Assembly: GCA_045598925.1 (NCBI GenBank)
Contig: JAZRVC010000027.1
Location: forward strand, 847 to 64,846
Source: Alphaproteobacteria bacterium
GTDB taxonomy: Bacteria > Pseudomonadota > Alphaproteobacteria > CAAHEQ01 > UBA3637
Length of the DNA: 64,000 nucleotides
Direction of reading: 5' to 3'
The position numbers were made by a program, and so were the translations under genes. The stretch's first letter is position 1, and each line of letters begins with the position of its first letter. Shown here piece after piece: positions 12,155-43,263 of the stretch. The notes under the pieces were generated by a model. That model had not been told where the DNA came from. It worked only from the letters and a program-made list of their open reading frames with translations, and made no database searches.

Positions 12155-13081
12155 TTATATATCCACACGCAAACCAACGGACAATGTATGTGTATGGTAG
12201 TCTTTCAACTTTAATTCTTCTGTGGCAGGCGCGTCCCCAGAAGTCCCATACCAATCCAACACAGCCATTTTGCCATAGTGGGTATAACGATAACCGACAT
12301 CTAAATCCACGCGTTTATTTAAAGCATAACTGAGCCCGGCGCCCAACTGCCAAATAAAGTTCGTTTTATTGCTGGAGTGTGAATCCACATCAACCAGACA
12401 AGTCCCAGGAACAGGATCATCTACGGTCAATTTACTCTTCAACCGACCCATACCGATACCGCCCCCAACATAAGGCTTTAATACAGAAGAAAGCGGCACA
12501 TCATAGTAGGCGTTCAATAAAACCGACATCGCCTGAACTTTATGCTTCATCTTATCTTGATCAACACTTCCCACCATATGGGCGTGCGGATAAGTCGTTT
12601 CGGCATCCGAATGCATGGCACCTTCCACTTCAAAGCGCAGATTATCCACGCGCACACCGAAAGCAATTGCCCCGCCCAAGACAGTATCATCTAAATCCCC
12701 TTTATATTTTGCAGATAAAGGACCAATTGTTTGATTGTGTTCAAAATCAGCCATGGCTTTACTGAGCATAAAACGTCCCGCGAAATAAGGCGCCACATTA
12801 GCCCGATAGGTCTTTCTGACGGGTGAAGAACCTGTATTATAGGCAGACGGATACGCTGTCGCCGCAGGGGCCACATAAGTCGGCGCCACATAAACGGGAG
12901 AACGTGTATCCACATAACCATAGGCATACGGTGAAGCACGCCGCGCTGTGCATGAATTTGTCGCACAATTGCAAATTGTTCCCGAAGAACATTGTCCAGC
13001 GCACCGGCAAGTCGGCACTGTACCCGCTTGCACCTGAACAGCCAATAAAGAAATTGACAATCCCCATAAAATTTTTTTCAT
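12155..13081 (-). CDS. Outer-membrane beta-barrel protein (Omp25/Omp31-like) with a Cys-rich N-terminal segment
   Basis: A signal peptide (MKKILWGLSISLLAVQVQA) is followed by 7 Cys in 25 aa, then a P/Y/V-rich linker and a C-terminal barrel with alternating hydrophobic strands (...LDVGYRYTHY...). Confidence 0.65.
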   Translation of the reverse strand: MKKILWGLSISLLAVQVQAGTVPTCRCAGQCSSGTICNCATNSCTARRASPYAYGYVDTRSPVYVAPTYVAPAATAYPSAYNTGSSPVRKTYRANVAPYFAGRFMLSKAMADFEHNQTIGPLSAKYKGDLDDTVLGGAIAFGVRVDNLRFEVEGAMHSDAETTYPHAHMVGSVDQDKMKHKVQAMSVLLNAYYDVPLSSVLKPYVGGGIGMGRLKSKLTVDDPVPGTCLVDVDSHSSNKTNFIWQLGAGLSYALNKRVDLDVGYRYTHYGKMAVLDWYGTSGDAPATEELKLKDYHTHTLSVGLRVDI

Positions 13082-23815: not shown

Positions 23816-26038
23816 CTACTCCCTACACACAGCATGGCCATTATAGTTGTTGCGACCTGCGTTACCCTCATAACCATCGTAGGCCACAAGGCGCGCGTAG
23901 CAGGAAGTATCTCTAAGCGGTGTACTCGTCCAAATATAGTTAGCAACTGCTGCACCAAACATTTTTCGTAAAGTGTTGGCCCGCGTTTTATCTGTGGGAA
24001 TTACACCTGTATATGTTTGAACCGCACTATTTACTTCATCCAATGTAACAAGAGATAAATTCTGAGCTTGACACCAATTATTGGCACTATACCAACTCAT
24101 CATTGTGTTACTATAGGTCCAACCCGTAAATGCAGTGGGATTCTCTTCAACTGTAGAAACAACTCCCCCCATATAATCTGATACTTGCTTACATGTCCCT
24201 ATCGTAGAAACATCACAACCATTAATAACAAGGCGTACACCCGTTGTTAGAAGACAGAACTCTCCCGGATTCGGACAATCCACATTTGTGGCACAACCTT
24301 CTGGTTTATAACATTCCCCCAATGTAGTGCCATCTGCAGAACAAGTATATCCTTTGGCACAACAAACCGCCGTATCACCAATACCACATTTTACCTGACC
24401 ATTAGCACATTCACTGCACTTATAATAAGTTGTCGTGGGTGTCGTACAGGTTGTTTCTTTTCCTTCTGCACATTCTGGTATTGATTCAGTTATTGTCCAA
24501 CTATCATCACAGGTATTAGCAACACATTCGTCCCCTTCTAAATGATACCCTGTATTACATTCACTGCACTTATAATAAGTTGTCGTGGGTGTCGTACAGG
24601 TTGTTTCTTTTCCTTCTGCACATTCTGGTATTGATTCAGTTATTGTCCAACTATCATCACAGGTATTAGCGATACATTTTCCCTCATCATTTTCATAATA
24701 TCCAGAGACACAGTCCCCACACTTTTGAGATATAGAAGGTTTTTGTTTTGGTACCCTATGCGCTTCTTCACAAGAATTAAAACATACACGACTATATTTC
24801 GTATTTGTCGTAGTATCACAATAGGCTTTTTCTTTTTCTGTATATGTACAGGCCGGAACCGGCATAGATGGGAAAACAGCACAAATCCCATCTGCACAAA
24901 TCTTTTGACAATCGTTACCACAATCTGAATTTTTTTCACAAGGAACGACACAATCTTGTATTGATTCATCATAATTTTCTATAGCCTGATTACAGAAGCA
25001 AGAAACCTCTCCTTCTTCTGTCATCATCGTTTTAATAAATCCACCTTTTCCAACAGGAGAACCAAGTGCACACATATTAGAAATACATTTACCTTTATCA
25101 TTTTCATAATATCCAGAGAGACAATCCCCACATTTAGAGGATATATGTGCATCTTTTTCCCGATGCAGTGCGTTACAAGAAGTACAAGCATAATTGTGAT
25201 ACTCATTTAACTCTGTATCACAGTAGGCATTTACACGAATAGTATAATCAGATCCCCCCATACCATTACAAGATGGAATGAGACCAAAATTACGTCGTTC
25301 TTCACAAATTCCCTCACTACACTCTTCTTCGCAATCTGGTTTACAATGAAGATTAGTCATACATTGAACACACTGACTTCCATTCCAATAAGGGGTATCA
25401 CCTGAACACAGGATACAACGTCCCTCTATATCATGATATTCTCCCACACAATCTCCGCATTCGCCATTCGTTCCGTCTTGACGATTTAAAGAGGCGCAAC
25501 TGACACAGCCAGTTTGGGTGTCGTTTAAGGCGGTACCGTCTTCACAAACACAACTTAAATTTTCCCAAGTACTGCCGATATTTTTAAAGCCTTCCTGACA
25601 AGCAAAACTTTCATTAGAGCAATCCGCATGATTTGGACACGCATAGCATTTATCTGTGCCACCAGGGGCAAAAGTACCTTCATCACACGCCACACATTCG
25701 GCCTTGCCCGCCACAGAGTGTGTTCCGGGGCCACACAAGGTACATTCATTTTGGCCATCGCTATAATAGCCCGTGGGACAAGGCTCACAGTTGCCGTCTT
25801 TGGCCACATATCCCAAATCACACAAGCACACACCGAACTCTTTATAGACGTTATCGCCCACGCAGGCACCCTCTTTTAATCTTAACTTCGGGCAATTCCC
25901 AACCCCGCATAATTCCACCGCAATAGACTTCACCCCATTGGGATTTGTGGCTTTTGTTTTACCGCCAAAAAGACCACCGCCCGCCAACACAACCGTGGAT
26001 ACCAAAACCGTACTAAACAATAAAACAACATTTTTCAT
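23816..26038 (-). CDS. Large secreted cysteine-rich protein (GCC2/GCC3- and EGF-like repeats) with a C-type-lectin-like C-terminal domain
   Basis: 740 aa. A Sec signal peptide is followed by CxxCPxGxY...CxxC repeats along most of the length. The C-terminus ...MMSWYSANNWCQAQNLSLVTLDEVN...SCYARLVAYDG...GHAVCRE fits a C-type lectin domain (CTLD). There is an RBS (GAGGAT). It is a paralogue of 32933..34387 and of the partial gene at 1..1105. Confidence 0.7.
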   Translation of the reverse strand: MKNVVLLFSTVLVSTVVLAGGGLFGGKTKATNPNGVKSIAVELCGVGNCPKLRLKEGACVGDNVYKEFGVCLCDLGYVAKDGNCEPCPTGYYSDGQNECTLCGPGTHSVAGKAECVACDEGTFAPGGTDKCYACPNHADCSNESFACQEGFKNIGSTWENLSCVCEDGTALNDTQTGCVSCASLNRQDGTNGECGDCVGEYHDIEGRCILCSGDTPYWNGSQCVQCMTNLHCKPDCEEECSEGICEERRNFGLIPSCNGMGGSDYTIRVNAYCDTELNEYHNYACTSCNALHREKDAHISSKCGDCLSGYYENDKGKCISNMCALGSPVGKGGFIKTMMTEEGEVSCFCNQAIENYDESIQDCVVPCEKNSDCGNDCQKICADGICAVFPSMPVPACTYTEKEKAYCDTTTNTKYSRVCFNSCEEAHRVPKQKPSISQKCGDCVSGYYENDEGKCIANTCDDSWTITESIPECAEGKETTCTTPTTTYYKCSECNTGYHLEGDECVANTCDDSWTITESIPECAEGKETTCTTPTTTYYKCSECANGQVKCGIGDTAVCCAKGYTCSADGTTLGECYKPEGCATNVDCPNPGEFCLLTTGVRLVINGCDVSTIGTCKQVSDYMGGVVSTVEENPTAFTGWTYSNTMMSWYSANNWCQAQNLSLVTLDEVNSAVQTYTGVIPTDKTRANTLRKMFGAAVANYIWTSTPLRDTSCYARLVAYDGYEGNAGRNNYNGHAVCRE
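24407..24670. repeat. Near-perfect intragenic tandem duplication (150-bp period, about 1.75 copies)
   Basis: About 110 nt at 24411..24520 recur at 24561..24670. The duplication encodes two copies of CANTCDDSWTITESIPECAEGKETTCTTPTTTYYKCSEC in the 23816..26038 protein. Confidence 0.8.
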
Positions 26039-36935: not shown

Positions 36936-38834
36936 ATGGAACAGGATTTAAATTCTTTTTTAATCAACTATACGTCTTTAGCCAAAGAAGGCAAACTAAC
37001 CAACCTGATCGGGCGGGAAAAAGAATTAGAGCGTCTGATTCATATCCTGCTCAGAAACACAAAAAACAATCCTGTGATTGTCGGGCCCAGCGGTATTGGA
37101 AAAACGGCCTTGATGGAAGGGTTGATTGCCTTTATGTGCAGCGAAAGCGCCCCCGAATATATGCAAACCCGTGAAGTGGTGGGATTGGATGTGGCCAAAA
37201 TTATGTTGGCCAGTAAAAGTGATGCCGAATATGAAGAACTGACCAAAAATGTGTTGCAATTAGTGGTAGATTCCAATCATCAAAAACTGCTCTATTTAAA
37301 AGATATCAGTTTTTTGGTACCGATGGAAACAAACCCCGAAAATCGTGAGCCGGCTAAATTTTTAAAACTCTGTCTGTTGGCAGGACAAGTCAATTGTCTT
37401 ATTGAAACAGATACCTTAAATTTCGTGGGACATTTGGAAAAAGACACAGCCGTTATGGGATGTTTACAATCTTTATTATTGGAAGAACCCACATTAGAAG
37501 AAAGCATTCAAATTTGCACCGCCCGAAAGGGGGCCTTGGAAGAACACTATGCCATTCAAATTCCGGATGAAACCGTGAAGGTTGCTTGTCAATTGACGGG
37601 ACGCTATATCAAACAGCGGGCGTTTCCAGAAAAAGCCTTAGACTTATTGGATGATTCGGCGAGCCTTCTGATGATGGACATTGCCCGTGGGGATGTCGCC
37701 GGTGAATCCAACACCCTAACCCAAGATTTTTGTTTCAGAACGATTGCCGATTGGACAGGGATTCCCGTGGAAAAAGTAGATGCGGAAGACAGGGAACGTT
37801 TGGCCAAAGCAGAAGACCTTTTACGCCAACGGGTCGTGGGGCAAGATAATGCCGTGAAAGTGGTAGCGGATGCTTTACGTCGTTCTCGGTCGGGATTACA
37901 AGACCCGAATCGTCCGATTGGATCCTTTTTGTTTGTTGGTACAACCGGTGTCGGTAAGACGGAATTGGCCAAATCTTTGGCGGACTTTATGTTTAATGAT
38001 GAAACCGCCCTACTTCGTATTGATATGTCCGAATATATGGAAAGGTCTTCGGTGACACGTTTGATTGGCCCCCCTCCTGGTTCACCGGGATTTGAACACG
38101 GCGGTCTGTTGACCGAAGCGGTTCGTTTAAAGCCTTTCCAAGTGGTGTTATTTGACGAAATTGAAAAAGCGCATTTGGATATTCTAAACTTGATGTTGCA
38201 ACTGTTGGATGAAGGACGACTCACCGACAGTAAAGGCGTGACAGTGGATTTCAGAAATACGATTATTATTTTGACCTCTAACGTGGGGGCGACATTGCCC
38301 AGTTATCAGCGGGTGGCAAAACTGACCGAATACTTCAGACCCGAATTTTTAAACCGTTTGGACGATATTGTATCCTTCCACCAACTCAAACCCGAACACT
38401 TGCGTCAAATTGTGGAAATTCATTTGAATAAGTTATTAAAACGCGCCAAGGCTTTAAACTATCTGGTCACCGTGGATGAAAAAGCAAAAGATTGGTTTGT
38501 GGATGAAGTCTTTACCTCTAAATTCGGGGTGCGTGCCTTAAAGCGTTTAATCCAAGAACAGGTGGAAACACCGCTCTCTTTATTGATTATGCAGGATAGA
38601 ATCCACCCGGGTCAACCTGTGTTTTTAAATGTGGATGAATCGGGCAGAAAATTACGCATCTATGCCAAACCGGCCACAGCAAATGCGCCCGCTATGGAAA
38701 TTAAAACACCCGAAAAGACCGCCGAACCGGATGAGGAAGACCCTATTGAAGAGGCAGAATCTCCCTCCGACCCCGAAGAAATTATAGAAGATAATTCAAA
38801 TGAGCAAAACGAACCTGACCACCCAACTGCTTGA
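36936..38834 (+). CDS. Divergent ClpA/ClpB-family AAA+ ATPase with degenerate NBD1, no N-domain and no long M-domain
   Basis: NBD1 keeps Walker A (GPSGIGKTA), but its Walker B is degenerate (LYLKDI instead of ILFIDE). NBD2 is intact (VVGQDNAV..., GTTGVGKTELAK, VVLFDEIEKAH, SNVGA). The C-terminal tail is acidic. Confidence 0.7.
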   Translation: MEQDLNSFLINYTSLAKEGKLTNLIGREKELERLIHILLRNTKNNPVIVGPSGIGKTALMEGLIAFMCSESAPEYMQTREVVGLDVAKIMLASKSDAEYEELTKNVLQLVVDSNHQKLLYLKDISFLVPMETNPENREPAKFLKLCLLAGQVNCLIETDTLNFVGHLEKDTAVMGCLQSLLLEEPTLEESIQICTARKGALEEHYAIQIPDETVKVACQLTGRYIKQRAFPEKALDLLDDSASLLMMDIARGDVAGESNTLTQDFCFRTIADWTGIPVEKVDAEDRERLAKAEDLLRQRVVGQDNAVKVVADALRRSRSGLQDPNRPIGSFLFVGTTGVGKTELAKSLADFMFNDETALLRIDMSEYMERSSVTRLIGPPPGSPGFEHGGLLTEAVRLKPFQVVLFDEIEKAHLDILNLMLQLLDEGRLTDSKGVTVDFRNTIIILTSNVGATLPSYQRVAKLTEYFRPEFLNRLDDIVSFHQLKPEHLRQIVEIHLNKLLKRAKALNYLVTVDEKAKDWFVDEVFTSKFGVRALKRLIQEQVETPLSLLIMQDRIHPGQPVFLNVDESGRKLRIYAKPATANAPAMEIKTPEKTAEPDEEDPIEEAESPSDPEEIIEDNSNEQNEPDHPTA

Positions 38835-39807: not shown

Positions 39808-39845
39808 AAAAAAATCTCCCCGTTTTAAGGGGAGATTTATATTGA
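39808..39845. terminator. Bidirectional rho-independent terminator
   Basis: Hairpin atctcccc-gtttta-aggggagat (39814..39837) flanked by A/T runs. It lies between mutY(+) and the 39846(-) gene. Confidence 0.6.
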
Positions 39846-41603
39846 TTATGAAATTGTACAAGCATGTGTTGTAGAATCCCAATTTTTGCCACCCAACTTT
39901 TTACATTCTTCCGACGAATTTGTCGTTGGGAATTCAGTTCTGGTTGCGGTTGAAGGCAGGAACAAAGTATTTCCTGAATCATCTTTAAAGTTATCTTTAT
40001 CAAACACACAGTAGGTTTGAACGACCGCTTTTGCCGAAGAATCAGGAGTACATGATCCACCGTTATTCTTACCCAAAGTGACAGACCATAAACCAGTGCT
40101 ATTATGTGCGACGGTATCCATTGAGTGAGCCGAACCTGCAATCTGCACACAAAGTCCCGTATCATTTTTAACGGAAACATTTGGATATGAGAAAGTTGTT
40201 CCTGAAACTTTTAATTGAGGAATCGTTATCTCATTATTAGTGTTAGCATCATCTAGATCAATCTCTTTTGACTCTGTTTTTACTCGATCATCTGATAAAT
40301 CATTATCATTTAATGTCAAAGCAGGAATATCAACAGTTAATTCTCGTTTATCCCAAGTGGTTGGTAAAACCACCAAGGCTTTTTTATAACCTGTCGGGCA
40401 ATCTGGTTTTTCAACCGCCCCCCCCCCTGATGCAATTTCCTTCTGCGTTTTTAAAATATAGTTCGGTAAAATTTCAGACAGGCTGGCCCCACCCCGAGAT
40501 GTCAATTTAACATCATTCAGAATTGAGGTATAGGCCGGATCCAAAAGATAACGTCTTTCTTGACCATTATCTTGAGCATCTGGACCGCTGTCTGCAAAGA
40601 AAATAGCCCCTTCTTTAGTTAAACGAATAGCGGCAGGTGAATTGGCCGGGTCATCTTGATCATAGCCCACATTCAAATCATTGCGCGTATAAACCGAACC
40701 ATTTTCATCGGCTTCCACCCAGAAAGTCGGCAAACAAGTGGGAGGCACATGCACCTCATCAGGATTCACAATAGAAACACCATTTGAATCAACCTCTGCG
40801 GTATTGTGATTAATGTATGACTCAGAATAACATCCCGTGGCATTCCCCACAGAAAAGTGGCCATAAGCATTTAATTTACGAACCTGTAAATCCAAATCTT
40901 TCGACAATGTCACTTTGGCTTGTTGTTTTTCATATTCGGGGGTAAAGACATCAAATCCCGTTGTGGCCGCATAAACCGCCCCGTGATAGTCGGCATCTTC
41001 CATACCGTCTATTTTATCCAAATGCCATGTTCCCAAAGAACCCGCTATTTCATCGTTGGTCGGTTCCCCATAAACGCCACCGTCTGCCCCAATCAATAGG
41101 GCAACGCGTGCCGCCCGCTTAAAGTTCCAACCTGTGGCGGGAATAGTTGCTGTTGTCGGGAAAACGACTCCGTAAATTTTAACCGCGGCCGTATCGTCAT
41201 TTTGACGATAAATCCATAAAGAAGGATTGTAATATTCGCCCAATCCCCCATCTGAAAACCACCCGTCCGGTAAATATTCGGAAATATTATCAGATAAACC
41301 ACCGATAGCACATTGATTCACATTATTGCAAGGATCACTTGGCGTACCAGTAGAACAAACAGGGGGAATTTGCTCCGCACACGTTGTTTGAATTTCGGCA
41401 GAATGGGCCTGAATATAGGCCGCGAAAGCCTCCTTAACTGTCCGAATTTCTGATGCCATTTGAATATTGTGTAATTCTTGGTTTCTTTGATAGATTTGAC
41501 GAAACAGCATTGCCCCCATCACGCCCATCAATGCCAACACAGCAATGACTTCCAACATAATAGAACCTTGTTGTGTCTTTCTTTTTTCAACTGTTAAAAC
41601 CAT
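39846..41603 (-). CDS. Very large type-IV-prepilin-like (pseudopilin-like) protein
   Basis: 585 aa. The N-terminus MVLTVEKRKTQQG|SIMLEVIAVLALMGVMGAM has a basic N-region, Gly at -1, Glu at +5 and a hydrophobic helix, i.e. a class III signal. The large C-terminal domain contains paired Cys and has no assigned family. Confidence 0.6.
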   Translation of the reverse strand: MVLTVEKRKTQQGSIMLEVIAVLALMGVMGAMLFRQIYQRNQELHNIQMASEIRTVKEAFAAYIQAHSAEIQTTCAEQIPPVCSTGTPSDPCNNVNQCAIGGLSDNISEYLPDGWFSDGGLGEYYNPSLWIYRQNDDTAAVKIYGVVFPTTATIPATGWNFKRAARVALLIGADGGVYGEPTNDEIAGSLGTWHLDKIDGMEDADYHGAVYAATTGFDVFTPEYEKQQAKVTLSKDLDLQVRKLNAYGHFSVGNATGCYSESYINHNTAEVDSNGVSIVNPDEVHVPPTCLPTFWVEADENGSVYTRNDLNVGYDQDDPANSPAAIRLTKEGAIFFADSGPDAQDNGQERRYLLDPAYTSILNDVKLTSRGGASLSEILPNYILKTQKEIASGGGAVEKPDCPTGYKKALVVLPTTWDKRELTVDIPALTLNDNDLSDDRVKTESKEIDLDDANTNNEITIPQLKVSGTTFSYPNVSVKNDTGLCVQIAGSAHSMDTVAHNSTGLWSVTLGKNNGGSCTPDSSAKAVVQTYCVFDKDNFKDDSGNTLFLPSTATRTEFPTTNSSEECKKLGGKNWDSTTHACTIS

Positions 41604-41627
41604 CTGTCTGCTTCCTTTCTTTATTTT

Positions 41628-43205
41628 TTAAGATACATCTTCAGAATTTACCCCTTTATAGTATATGGGAAAACGCCCTCTATCTTCTTTATACATATCG
41701 TGAATTTCATCCTGTGTCAAGGCTCGGTCAAAAAAGCGCACACCATAGATCTGAGTGCGTTGTTCTGGCGTCGCGGTTCCCAAGTGTTTTATTTCCATTT
41801 TATTTGTCCCCAAAGTAAATGAATTAAGATTAGCCAGTTCATCAGGATATTCGTTCAAATCTATACTCATTTCAGGTTCTTTTAAATCATCCGTAAAAAG
41901 ATAGATGTGATTGCCTTGACGTTGCAAAGTCAGTGAATGGATTAAACGTCTTTTGATATCAAAATCCAAAACAGGAATTTTCCCCGAAGCCCCATTACCC
42001 AATACATTTAATTCCAATACGGTAGGCTTGGTCAAATCGGCCTCATCTGCATTGGATGTATCTATGGGACGCGCTGTCAAGGTTAAAAACCCGCCTGTTC
42101 CACTTTCAAAACGGATTAAATCCACAGCAGGATTTATATCATGAACAGCACCGACACTGGAAGCCGTTTGCGGGTCAAATCCCACCAATAAGGTCAAGGT
42201 AAAATCATGGGTTAAAACACCCGAATTGATATCAAAATCGACGGCTGTATTTGGTCCTTCTAATGTAATGGCGGGACGTTTAACACTATCCGGTCCAAAA
42301 TAGGCCCCATTTAAATCACTAAAGACTTTGGTAGATGTATCATACTTCCCCGCTACAGTCGTGGAGACCAAATCCAACCACTTACCGGTTGTACCTTCTA
42401 AACGGGATTTAGACGAACTATTCGGGGCGTGTTTGGCTTGGTTATCCAAGCCATCCCAAAAATGCACCAAATTGGCAGGATAATAGGCAAAGGGGCCTTG
42501 TTTAACCTTGGACATACAAAGAAACATATCTGATGTCGGTCCCGAAGGAAACAACACTGCAACCAACCCCGCGGGAATCGGCTTAGCACAGACACCATTT
42601 TTAATGGCCCTGACACCATTATCTAAACAAAAGTTCCCCGTGCTGGTCGGGTCATCAAAAATTGTTCCACAGGTTTGAGAACCTGATGTGCGGGTAGCAA
42701 AGGAACGGCGCCAACGTTCATTACGACGGGCGCGAGAAGTACTTTCTTGTGGCCACCAAGCGGGACGTTCATATTCGTTTTTTGCCGCATCATAATACAG
42801 CCCACCATAGGTCACCACATAGATATTGTCCGAATCTTTACAGGCCTGAGCGGCTGTACCGGCCGTATTTAAACAAGCGATACGCGACACAAAGCAAGGG
42901 GCATCATCTGCCGCCAAAGGATCCAAAGCAGCATTATTATAACACATTTCCGAACCCAAATGGATATCCATATATTCCAAAAATTCGGGTTGAAGATTAA
43001 AAACAGTCCTGTCATCTGCGGGGTCGGGTTTTTGTATCCCGTACCAACGACGCAAATAATCTTTTGCGGCTTGATGTTGGCTTAAAAAAGATTGGATAAA
43101 GGGTTCACCCTGAAAGACCTCTATATTCAAGCGGTCTTCACGTGGGGAAAGCGTGTAAAACAAAATCCCCGCCAAGAATGTCAAAACAGCCATTAAATAG
43201 AGCAT
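41628..43205 (-). CDS. Membrane-anchored protein with a C-terminal LamG/concanavalin-A-like lectin-fold domain
   Basis: 525 aa. A single N-terminal TM (MLYLMAVLTFLAGILFYTL) is present, with a strong RBS (AGGGGGA) and an in-frame TAA immediately upstream. The C-terminus ...HIYLFTDD...SFTLGT...YGVRFFDRALTQDEIHDMY matches the Laminin_G_3 pattern. It sits directly upstream of the prepilin-like gene. Confidence 0.55.
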   Translation of the reverse strand: MLYLMAVLTFLAGILFYTLSPREDRLNIEVFQGEPFIQSFLSQHQAAKDYLRRWYGIQKPDPADDRTVFNLQPEFLEYMDIHLGSEMCYNNAALDPLAADDAPCFVSRIACLNTAGTAAQACKDSDNIYVVTYGGLYYDAAKNEYERPAWWPQESTSRARRNERWRRSFATRTSGSQTCGTIFDDPTSTGNFCLDNGVRAIKNGVCAKPIPAGLVAVLFPSGPTSDMFLCMSKVKQGPFAYYPANLVHFWDGLDNQAKHAPNSSSKSRLEGTTGKWLDLVSTTVAGKYDTSTKVFSDLNGAYFGPDSVKRPAITLEGPNTAVDFDINSGVLTHDFTLTLLVGFDPQTASSVGAVHDINPAVDLIRFESGTGGFLTLTARPIDTSNADEADLTKPTVLELNVLGNGASGKIPVLDFDIKRRLIHSLTLQRQGNHIYLFTDDLKEPEMSIDLNEYPDELANLNSFTLGTNKMEIKHLGTATPEQRTQIYGVRFFDRALTQDEIHDMYKEDRGRFPIYYKGVNSEDVS

Positions 43206-43263
43206 TTAATCCCCCTTTAAACTCACTTTAATCTCTTTTTTTTAAAATGGCAAGACTTTTTTA

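Follow-up and report, generated by a model that had tools for sequence, protein, structure and literature searches.

A conserved gene pair encoding a membrane-anchored LamG-like protein and a large prepilin-like protein in uncultured gut Alphaproteobacteria, a candidate adhesive module

The minus strand of the analysed stretch of DNA, which extends over 64,000 nucleotides and is referred to as the window, carries two adjacent genes, termed X and Y, whose organization is defined by the following features:

43210..43218, minus strand: ribosome-binding site of X, AAAGGGGGA, with its AGGGGGA core at 43216-43210
41628..43205, minus strand: ORF X, 525 residues, with N-terminal anchor, Cys-rich N-domain and C-terminal LamG/ConA-like domain
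43047..43205, minus strand: residues 1-53 of X, a hydrophobic segment (1-21) followed by an amphipathic helix with a QHQAAKDY motif
42366..43046, minus strand: residues 54-280 of X, a predicted mixed alpha/beta domain with invariant cysteines and a WWP motif
41658..42353, minus strand: residues ~285-516 of X, a putative divergent LamG or concanavalin-A-like beta-sandwich
41604..41627, minus strand: spacer of 24 nt between X and Y, with the ribosome-binding site of Y (AAGGAAG, 41611-41617) and no terminator-like site
39846..41603, minus strand: ORF Y, 585 residues, with leader, helix alpha1, head domain and variable C-terminal modules
39812..39838, no strand assigned: hairpin with T-runs on both strands and a 10-bp GC-rich stem, 8 nt past the stop codon of Y

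The coding region of X begins with an ATG at 43205 and ends with a stop codon at 41630-41628. The sequence 5' of the start reads ...AAAGGGGGATTAA-ATG and contains both elements on which the preliminary description had based its view of a firm start, the AGGGGGA ribosome-binding site and an in-frame TAA, which at 43208-43206 directly abuts the ATG and thus rules out an upstream leader peptide and, with it, an alternative upstream start. Two family members (P0156 and P0157) carry N-terminal extensions of seven residues, which look like the result of a miscalled start codon given that P0163 and P0164, both closely related to them, begin with MVYL. Fifteen relatives of X were found among 5.8 billion clustered proteins, and an exhaustive HMMER scan of cluster representatives at 50% identity returned 90 matches at E ≤ 0.001, of which 87 belong to the X family and three (P0199, P0209 and P0216) match its C-terminal LamG-like stretch only. 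In an alignment of 74 family members, Met 1 is invariant and positions 2-4 are strongly conserved (L/F/V, Y/F, L/W). The presence of these relatives and the conservation of the N-terminus argue against a chance ORF and, as judged from sequence, X is a real gene. X by itself matched nothing in Pfam, NCBIfam, PHROGs or PADLOC, upon which a phage or defence origin was dropped, and X together with its 14 closest relatives gave zero Pfam or NCBIfam matches even at E ≤ 10. The local GC content of 0.41-0.46 is similar to that of the flanks. Sequence identity declines along X from 75% in the helix to 41% in the N-domain and 24% in the LamG-like domain, and the same gradient is found in Y.

The proposal of a single N-terminal transmembrane anchor in this 525-residue protein is borne out by its hydropathy, as Kyte-Doolittle values exceed 1.6 in the first three 19-residue windows only, thus defining one N-terminal hydrophobic segment. 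In the AlphaFold2 model, a helix comprising residues 2-19 continues as a helix of residues 23-53, with a kink at Pro 21, a residue that ends the hydrophobic segment and that is kept in 72 of the 74 family sequences. Residues 1-53 constitute the most conserved part of the protein, with a mean identity of 75% among the 14 nearest relatives, and they share with type IV pilins an N-terminal helix that is about 53 residues long and hydrophobic over its first ~20 positions. Helix 2-53 of X and alpha1 of Y have the same overall length. A Gly-1-type leader is not found in X, with all full-length family members starting with M-[LFV]-[YF]-[LW] and running from there into the hydrophobic stretch, and Glu 5 is absent in all 74 sequences, where position 5 is occupied by V, L, M, A or T and never by E. 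Interpretation of the N-terminus as a cleavable Sec signal peptide or as that of a lipoprotein was rejected, as it contains neither a basic n-region nor a lipobox, and such a reading is also contradicted by the conservation along the entire hydrophobic segment.

The following domain (residues 54-280) contains six cysteines that are kept without exception in the 15 closest family members and that fit an extracytoplasmic location, four of which (Cys 111, Cys 122, Cys 179 and Cys 230) are at least 90% conserved across 74 members. It has no sequence relative in Pfam, NCBIfam or the PDB, including none among solved pilins, and is thus, at the level of sequence, a novel Cys-rich domain. In the AlphaFold2 model, strands at residues 105-146 and 179-251 succeed the N-terminal helix. 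No match to a pilin-head fold could be isolated for this region from whole-chain Foldseek lists, since these are dominated by the ConA module, and it is solely the order of secondary-structure elements in the predicted model that suggests a pilin-like nature of the domain.

For the C-terminal part, the preliminary description had noted a match to Laminin_G_3/ConA-like proteins over about 150 residues. In its most direct form this claim did not hold, as the proposed HMM search with Laminin_G_3 (PF13385) gave no match to X itself at E ≤ 10, leaving it below the Pfam gathering threshold of 27.6 bits. The assignment is upheld by fold, profile and transitive matches, and the domain is larger than assumed, encompassing about residues 285-516. 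Among family members with listed bit scores, P0158 passes the threshold with 38.6 bits, and 18 of the 74 members match PF13385 at E ≤ 0.01, the best at 1.2e-15. The best-supported LamG stretch of X comprises residues 412-516 (41658-41972) and ends in IYGVRFFDRALTQDEIHDMYKEDRGRF. In a phmmer search with X alone, residues 412-515 reach the outside proteins P0199, P0209 and P0216, whose aligned regions are genuine PF13385 domains above the gathering score, and an hhalign comparison of the X-family C-terminus with these LamG_3 domains yielded a probability of 97% (E = 8e-11, X residues ~415-516), which places the homology to genuine Laminin_G_3 members at the profile level. When searched against the PDB, the X-family profile matched tetanus toxin Hc (E = 7e-8, ~165 positions) and also the S-layer protein 4qvs, an arabinanase and, in sialidases, modules of lectin or carbohydrate-binding type; this search required the 74-sequence profile, a shallow profile of 15 sequences having returned chance matches only. 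The AlphaFold2 model of X (pLDDT 73.6, pTM 0.75, with low-confidence loops inside the ConA-like domain) displays the jelly-roll beta-sandwich fold, and Foldseek related it at about 1e-7 to lectin-like subdomains of botulinum and tetanus toxin Hc and to the lectin domains of trans-sialidases. Another PDB match (E = 4.8e-7, 343 columns) concerns entry 7oa7, which represents the Ig-plus-ConA lectin part of the modular minor pilin PilC of Streptococcus sanguinis, with the pilin moiety absent (PMC9934059). In the BFVD, LamG/ConA proteins are found at the top with target TM-scores of up to 0.70, phage LamG proteins among them. Collectively, the profile comparisons and the predicted fold support the C-terminal domain as divergent LamG/ConA-like, and it is on this end of the protein that the sole meaningful profile-library matches of X relatives fall.

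The product of Y carries the N-terminal hallmarks of a type IV pilin, with a leader of 13 residues (41565-41603) that ends in Gly-1, a glutamate at position +5 and a hydrophobic alpha1N. Gly 13 (Gly-1) and Glu 18 (Glu+5), which form part of a class III signal, are invariant in all 41 sequences of the family, whereas the basic leader is variable, with a mean identity of 34% compared to 85% for alpha1, an almost invariant helix of 53 residues. The model of Y is mediocre overall (pLDDT 68.9, pTM 0.39); it contains a helix of residues 5-66 and a head domain that is confidently modelled to residue ~215 and followed by variable C-terminal modules. Sub-threshold matches were obtained to the GspG N-terminus (TIGR01710) in 22 and to Pfam N_methyl in 11 of the 41 members. 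At E ≤ 1e-3, Foldseek matched Y in the PDB to TcpB (5.9e-5) and CofB (1.8e-4) only, with TM-scores of 0.12-0.17. No profile similarity between X and Y was detected by hhalign (0.1% probability), and their relationship as paralogues was rejected on this basis. The first 72 residues of Y were also used to look for a small major pilin that begins in the same way, with an uninformative outcome of six short fragments only.

The two genes are separated by exactly the 24 nt that had been reported, from the stop codon of X to the ATG of Y at 41603, and the suggestion that they form a two-gene module finds its counterpart in the conservation of their pairing: 21 distinct loci, which come from gut and rumen Alphaproteobacteria, show X and then Y as neighbours on one strand. 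Across these loci the gap ranges from -8 to 68 nt, with stop and start codons overlapping in some cases. The gene upstream of the pair varies between nusB, mutY and a SpoU methylase, and in every case the pair is flanked by housekeeping genes. As exceptions, three loci contain X with no adjacent Y and one contains Y without X. The hairpin at 39812..39838, which is common to Y and a convergent mutY gene, likely marks the end of the X-Y transcript. The short or overlapping gaps, the lack of a terminator between the genes and the strong hairpin with its T-run after Y are consistent with co-transcription, and we thus regard X and Y as a putative, conserved and previously unannotated two-gene operon of uncultured gut Alphaproteobacteria.

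A motif scan of loci extending 10 kb to either side of X-Y, amounting to 535 kb from about 26 genomes, revealed neither the motifs of a GspE/PilB/TadA-type ATPase or an A24 peptidase nor a Flp-like pilin, and no filament machinery was found among the ORFs of the window scanned against Pfam. A search of the literature on pili in RF32-type gut Alphaproteobacteria gave nothing useful. With no pilus machinery near the pair, its mechanism is one that we infer. Most likely, the two proteins form an adhesive pair through which a pilus-type filament binds sugars. In a more specific proposal, which we favour tentatively, both proteins would work together as subunits of a surface structure that resembles a type IV filament, that is capped by X and primed by Y and that carries the LamG module at its tip. 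X would insert with its N-terminus inside and its C-terminus outside as an uncleaved pilin-like subunit and, in light of the absent Glu 5 and the bulky distal lectin module, would occupy the position of the first, capping subunit. Its conserved alpha1 may dock on the priming pilin Y, which resembles TcpB and CofB, and the pair would thereby present the LamG-like module at the filament tip for binding of gut glycans or another ligand, with the fast-evolving module offering the putative ligand-binding face. Genes for the filament machinery, and for a major pilin if there is one, would have to lie elsewhere in the genome. A farther-reaching version appears improbable, in which X is a leaderless pilin that enters membrane and filament without processing by a prepilin peptidase and caps a fibre primed by or even built from Y, the two forming a minimal adhesive system of two pilins, unlinked, confined to uncultured gut Alphaproteobacteria and endowed with a Cys-rich head domain not described before. 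Several observations speak against the favoured proposal: X fails two defining features of pilins, the Gly-1 leader and Glu 5, its N-domain appears pilin-like only by the order of predicted secondary-structure elements, it shares no profile similarity with Y, the 535 kb scanned around the pair yielded no machinery motifs, the model of Y is mediocre and its matches to TcpB and CofB are weak, some loci contain X or Y unpaired, and ConA-like domains are not always lectins.

The lack of a prepilin cleavage site and of Glu 5 in X, its lack of homology to Y and the lack of a detectable relative of its N-domain among solved pilins would be accommodated if X were a bitopic inner-membrane accessory protein rather than a filament subunit, whose helix and N-domain bind Y and stabilise, chaperone or anchor it and whose LamG-like domain touches peptidoglycan or another glycan of the periplasm, perhaps by analogy to PilN/PilO-type alignment proteins or to the uncleaved archaellin-like FlaF/FlaG. 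The tight and sometimes overlapping coupling of the genes would fit a stoichiometric partner, and the stabilisation of PilC by PilA in S. sanguinis provides a precedent for such an interaction (PMC9934059). We nevertheless consider this role somewhat unlikely, as the steep drop in conservation from the helix (75%) to the LamG-like domain (24%) looks more like that of an exposed ligand-facing domain than of a housekeeping periplasmic anchor, and as the LamG-like matches of X and its relatives include filament or surface proteins, namely PilC, TafC and fusions of pilins with LamG_3.

In another scenario, X and Y would form a surface or envelope complex that is independent of a type IV filament machine and acts as a membrane-tethered adhesin or receptor, with the N-terminus of Y being a mere anchor or relic. 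It is in line with the absence of machinery genes beside the pair in about 26 genomes and with its housekeeping flanks and, weakly, with the failure to retrieve a small major pilin with the N-terminus of Y. However, pilin genes are commonly unlinked from type IV pilus machinery, and the invariance of Gly-1 and Glu+5 beside a leader that varies freely is the mark of continued processing by a prepilin peptidase and of packing into a filament rather than of a relic, which makes this scenario unlikely. Doubts of a different kind concern the ConA-like domain, whose superfamily includes glucanases and whose best PDB matches are toxin HCN subdomains of unclear ligand role. A catalytic function of glucanase type or a purely structural one, as a spacer resembling the HCN subdomain of botulinum toxin, appears very unlikely in X, since its relatives at the sequence level are of the LamG_3 type instead of glycoside hydrolase families, the other PDB profile matches fall on modules of lectin or carbohydrate-binding type in sialidases and an arabinanase, and no conserved acidic catalytic pair is prominent among the invariant columns of the X family.

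To our knowledge, this lineage of gut and rumen Alphaproteobacteria is represented by metagenome-assembled genomes only. The conserved, fast-evolving lectin-plus-pilin pair described here offers a concrete candidate for their adhesion apparatus, and it introduces two protein families that lie beyond curated profile libraries, where Y and its relatives find only sub-threshold matches to pilin N-termini. If X indeed joined a filament without a cleavable leader, the definition of a pilin-like subunit would have to be widened. If it did not, the pair would still be a clear case of an adhesive module joined to a membrane-helix scaffold beside a modular pilin, and the theme of modular pilins, known from streptococci and Tad pili, would thereby reach a new lineage.

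Several known systems resemble the pair in part, and PilC, CpaL/TadG, TafC and the pilin-type proteins P0209 and P0216 provide precedents for its architecture. TadG/CpaL of Tad pili, which occurs in Alphaproteobacteria, combines a pilin-like N-terminal module with an adhesive domain, and CpaL was modelled as first subunit at the tip because a register-setting residue is absent (PMC11870444). Like X, these proteins fuse a large N-terminal module to a distal domain. Unlike X, with which they share no sequence similarity, they contain a vWA domain with a MIDAS motif, which is found neither in X nor in any of its 74 relatives, and CpaL has a proposed CpaA cleavage site. In haloarchaeal Tat-fimbriae, the minor subunit TafC bears a C-terminal laminin-G-like domain and was modelled at the filament end (PMC11821415). 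Two members of the X family weakly match the TafC model of NCBIfam (E = 4.4e-4). However, TafC is exported by the Tat pathway and assembles by donor-strand exchange, an entirely different principle from that proposed for X and Y. Capping pseudopilins of the GspK type lack Glu 5 and carry a bulky extra domain, and GspK can thus only be the first subunit. They differ from X by their cleaved leader and by an alpha-helical insert in place of the ConA-like domain, and no fold or sequence match of X to GspK was seen. TcpB of Vibrio cholerae and CofB of ETEC CFA/III, which initiate the assembly of the pilus and are located at its tip, resemble Y as large multi-domain type IVb minor pilins with a class III signal. 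Y is larger and adjoins neither a major pilin gene nor a type IVb operon, with X holding the upstream position that is taken by the major pilin gene in the operons of TcpB and CofB, and its fold match to both is weak (TM-score 0.12-0.17). A combination of pilin and LamG_3 features is found in P0209 and P0216, where a pilin-type N-terminus (KG|ITLVA... hydrophobic stretch) is joined to LamG_3 repeats, and where a C-terminal strand and helix (VYSVRIYNRxLxxEEIxxNYxxDKxRF) align with residues 412-515 of X. In contrast to X, both start with a short basic leader that ends in Gly and contain tandem above-threshold LamG_3 domains, and they lack the N-domain of X. Finally, PilC of S. sanguinis acts at the pilus tip with partner minor pilins, with its lectin binding host glycans (PMC9934059). 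PilC carries a signal peptide of canonical class III type and is encoded inside the pil locus of a monoderm host, whereas X contains no leader, Gly-1 or Glu 5, has an unrelated Cys-rich N-domain and is encoded among housekeeping genes; what PilC shares with the role proposed for X is its large size, its association with a filament and a lectin module of ConA-like type that forms the C-terminal end.

The 525-residue protein X, proposed in a preliminary description to be a membrane-anchored LamG-like protein that forms a two-gene module with the large prepilin-like protein Y, is encoded by a real gene. The features that define the locus in the window are:

43218-43210, minus strand, Shine-Dalgarno motif of X, graded strong
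43208-43206, minus strand, in-frame TAA touching the start codon of X
41628-43205, minus strand, X, 525 residues
39846-41603, minus strand, Y, 585 residues
39812-39838, perfect 10-bp GC-rich hairpin with T-runs on both strands, 8 nt past the stop codon of Y, between the convergent Y and mutY

ORF calling and hydropathy analysis reproduced a reading frame of this length with a single hydrophobic segment, located at the extreme N-terminus. Its start is firm, as illustrated by the strong Shine-Dalgarno motif and the stop codon in the preceding sequence (AAAGGGGGATTAA-ATG), and since this TAA abuts the ATG, a leader peptide upstream of X is impossible. The start residue is common to nearly all members of the family, of which 15 relatives were found among 5.8 billion clustered proteins, while 1.84 billion cluster representatives, scanned exhaustively with HMMER, gave 90 matches at E ≤ 0.001, with 87 belonging to the family and three aligning only with the C-terminal LamG-like stretch.

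The claim that this C-terminus resembles Laminin_G_3 and ConA-like domains found no support in plain Pfam and NCBIfam scans, where neither X nor any of the 14 relatives closest to it gave a match even at E ≤ 10, but it holds when judged by remote homology and by fold, with four independent lines behind it. A phmmer search with X alone as query detected three non-family proteins, P0199, P0209 and P0216 (library-wide E = 3e-7 to 3e-4), through residues 412-515 of X; the parts of these proteins that align with it score above the Pfam threshold and are genuine domains of the Laminin_G_3 type. When scanned singly, 18 of 74 family members match PF13385 at E ≤ 0.01 (best 1.2e-15), among them P0158 with 38.6 bits (threshold 27.6). 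The profile of the 74 sequences matches the lectin-like subdomain of tetanus toxin Hc over about 165 positions (E = 7e-8), and further an S-layer protein, an arabinanase C-terminal domain and sialidase lectin modules, and hhalign aligns the C-terminal part with LamG_3 domains at 97% probability. Finally, the AlphaFold2 model of X (pLDDT 73.6, pTM 0.75) retrieves from the PDB, with E close to 1e-7, the ConA-like domains of botulinum and tetanus toxin Hc, of trans-sialidase and of 7oa7, and from BFVD phage 'ConA-like/LamG' proteins with target TM-scores up to 0.70. Within the superfamily the domain is divergent and stays below the threshold for Laminin_G_3; it spans residues roughly 285-516, thus exceeding the approximately 150 residues initially ascribed to it.

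The spacing of 24 nt between the stop codon of X and the ATG of Y on the same strand proved exact, and the spacer carries the ribosome-binding site AAGGAAG. The suspected pairing is conserved in 21 distinct loci of uncultured Alphaproteobacteria from human, ruminant and rabbit guts, where Y follows X on the same strand at a distance of -8 to 68 nt. Since different genes lie upstream of it (nusB, mutY or SpoU methylase), the pair travels as a unit, with exceptions in three loci that contain X alone and one that contains Y alone. In one lineage, the genes that come after a solitary X are corC-ybeY-phoH, oriented oppositely (L016, 10001-13420), and the same block precedes the solitary Y (L028, 7791-12151); a rearrangement around this block may have separated X from Y. 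No terminator-like site was found between nusB, X and Y in the window, and the hairpin with its T-run after Y is likely a bidirectional terminator, which makes co-transcription of X and Y likely. A promoter-like site at 43253-43225 scores no better than chance.

The N-terminus of Y shows a classical class III signal pattern, consisting of a basic leader of 13 residues followed by G|SIMLEV, with Gly13 and Glu18 invariant among 41 orthologues, whose mean identity is 34% in the leader and 85% in the next 53 residues. Matches of the family to curated models all remain below threshold (GspG N-terminus in 22 and N_methyl in 11 of the 41). The structural model is mediocre overall (pLDDT 68.9, pTM 0.39), its confident parts being a helix at 5-66 and a head domain extending to about residue 215. 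At E ≤ 1e-3, the fold search of the PDB returned nothing but TcpB and CofB, both large type IVb minor pilins, and their TM-scores are low (0.12-0.17). Homology between X and Y was rejected.

In the model of X, helices at 2-19 and 23-53 are separated by a kink at Pro21, a residue found in 72 of 74 relatives, and lead into a loop region and then, as far as residue ~251, a series of strands and helices. Within this stretch lie a WWP motif and six cysteines (111, 122, 179, 193, 206, 230) that are invariant among the 15 closest relatives, four of them with a conservation of 90% or more in the set of 74. Pfam, NCBIfam and PDB sequences contain no relative of residues 1-280. Mean identity decreases from 75% in residues 1-53 to 41% in the N-domain and 24% in the LamG-like module. 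The highest conservation would not be expected in a helix that served only as a membrane anchor, so specific contacts of this helix are probable. In its length, hydrophobic first third and proline kink it recalls α1 of type IV pilins. Unlike these, X contains neither a leader nor Gly-1 and never carries Glu at position 5; it therefore falls outside the definition of a type IV pilin, an assignment that we rejected. X goes beyond a plain anchored lectin, given that its conserved helix of 53 residues and its novel Cys-rich domain are suggestive of a scaffold like that of pilins. The preliminary observation is thus confirmed and its interpretation supported with two corrections, concerning the level of the LamG assignment and this additional architecture.

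Other genes in the window include:

12155-13081, minus strand, outer-membrane beta-barrel protein, 308 residues (OMP_b-brl, E = 1e-16)
23816-26038, minus strand, secreted Cys-rich protein, 740 residues
32933-34387, minus strand, its secreted Cys-rich paralogue, 484 residues
35874-36935, plus strand, protein of 353 residues with no Pfam match, abutting the AAA+ gene
36936-38834, plus strand, ClpB-like AAA+ protein, 632 residues

The beta-barrel protein has an unusual Cys-rich N-terminal extension straight after its signal peptide. The paralogues share 87% identity over their first 211 residues, diverge beyond, and match eukaryote-type TNFR/ELAPOR1-like and ephrin-receptor-like Cys-rich repeat models (31.8 and 33.4 bits, threshold 33.2). 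At loci L001 and L027, the AAA+ gene is adjoined by Pfam-less proteins similar in size to the 353-residue protein.

We tentatively favour a mechanism where Y would act as a priming pilin resembling TcpB and CofB, capped by X as an uncleaved, pilin-like subunit devoid of Glu5, which would display a predicted, fast-evolving LamG-type binding module. The main alternative, that X remains an inner-membrane protein which stabilises or anchors Y, appears less probable. The pair is flanked by housekeeping genes at every locus, and neither the 535 kb around it nor a Pfam scan of the window ORFs revealed a GspE/PilB/TadA ATPase motif, an A24 peptidase motif or a Flp-like pilin; that both proteins function without any filament machine ranks second and is unlikely. 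A non-lectin role of the ConA-like domain is a minor and very improbable option. As the mechanism is one that we infer, the interest of the pair is moderate.

In the favoured capping mechanism, X would be a modular adhesive pilin-type protein, a kind already known; its family lacks annotation and is confined to a single lineage. Filament subunits that bear an adhesive module at the tip have precedents in PilC of S. sanguinis, whose module at the filament tip is a ConA-like lectin (PMC9934059), in CpaL/TadG, whose module is a vWA domain and which, being devoid of the register-setting residue, was modelled as first subunit (PMC11870444), and in haloarchaeal TafC, with a LamG-like domain on a filament subunit (PMC11821415). 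They also include P0209 and P0216, which among proteins outside the family are closest to the C-terminus of X; these are pilin-LamG_3 fusions of about 600 residues where a pilin-type N-terminus (KG|ITLVA), with Ala instead of Glu at position 5, precedes two Laminin_G_3 domains.
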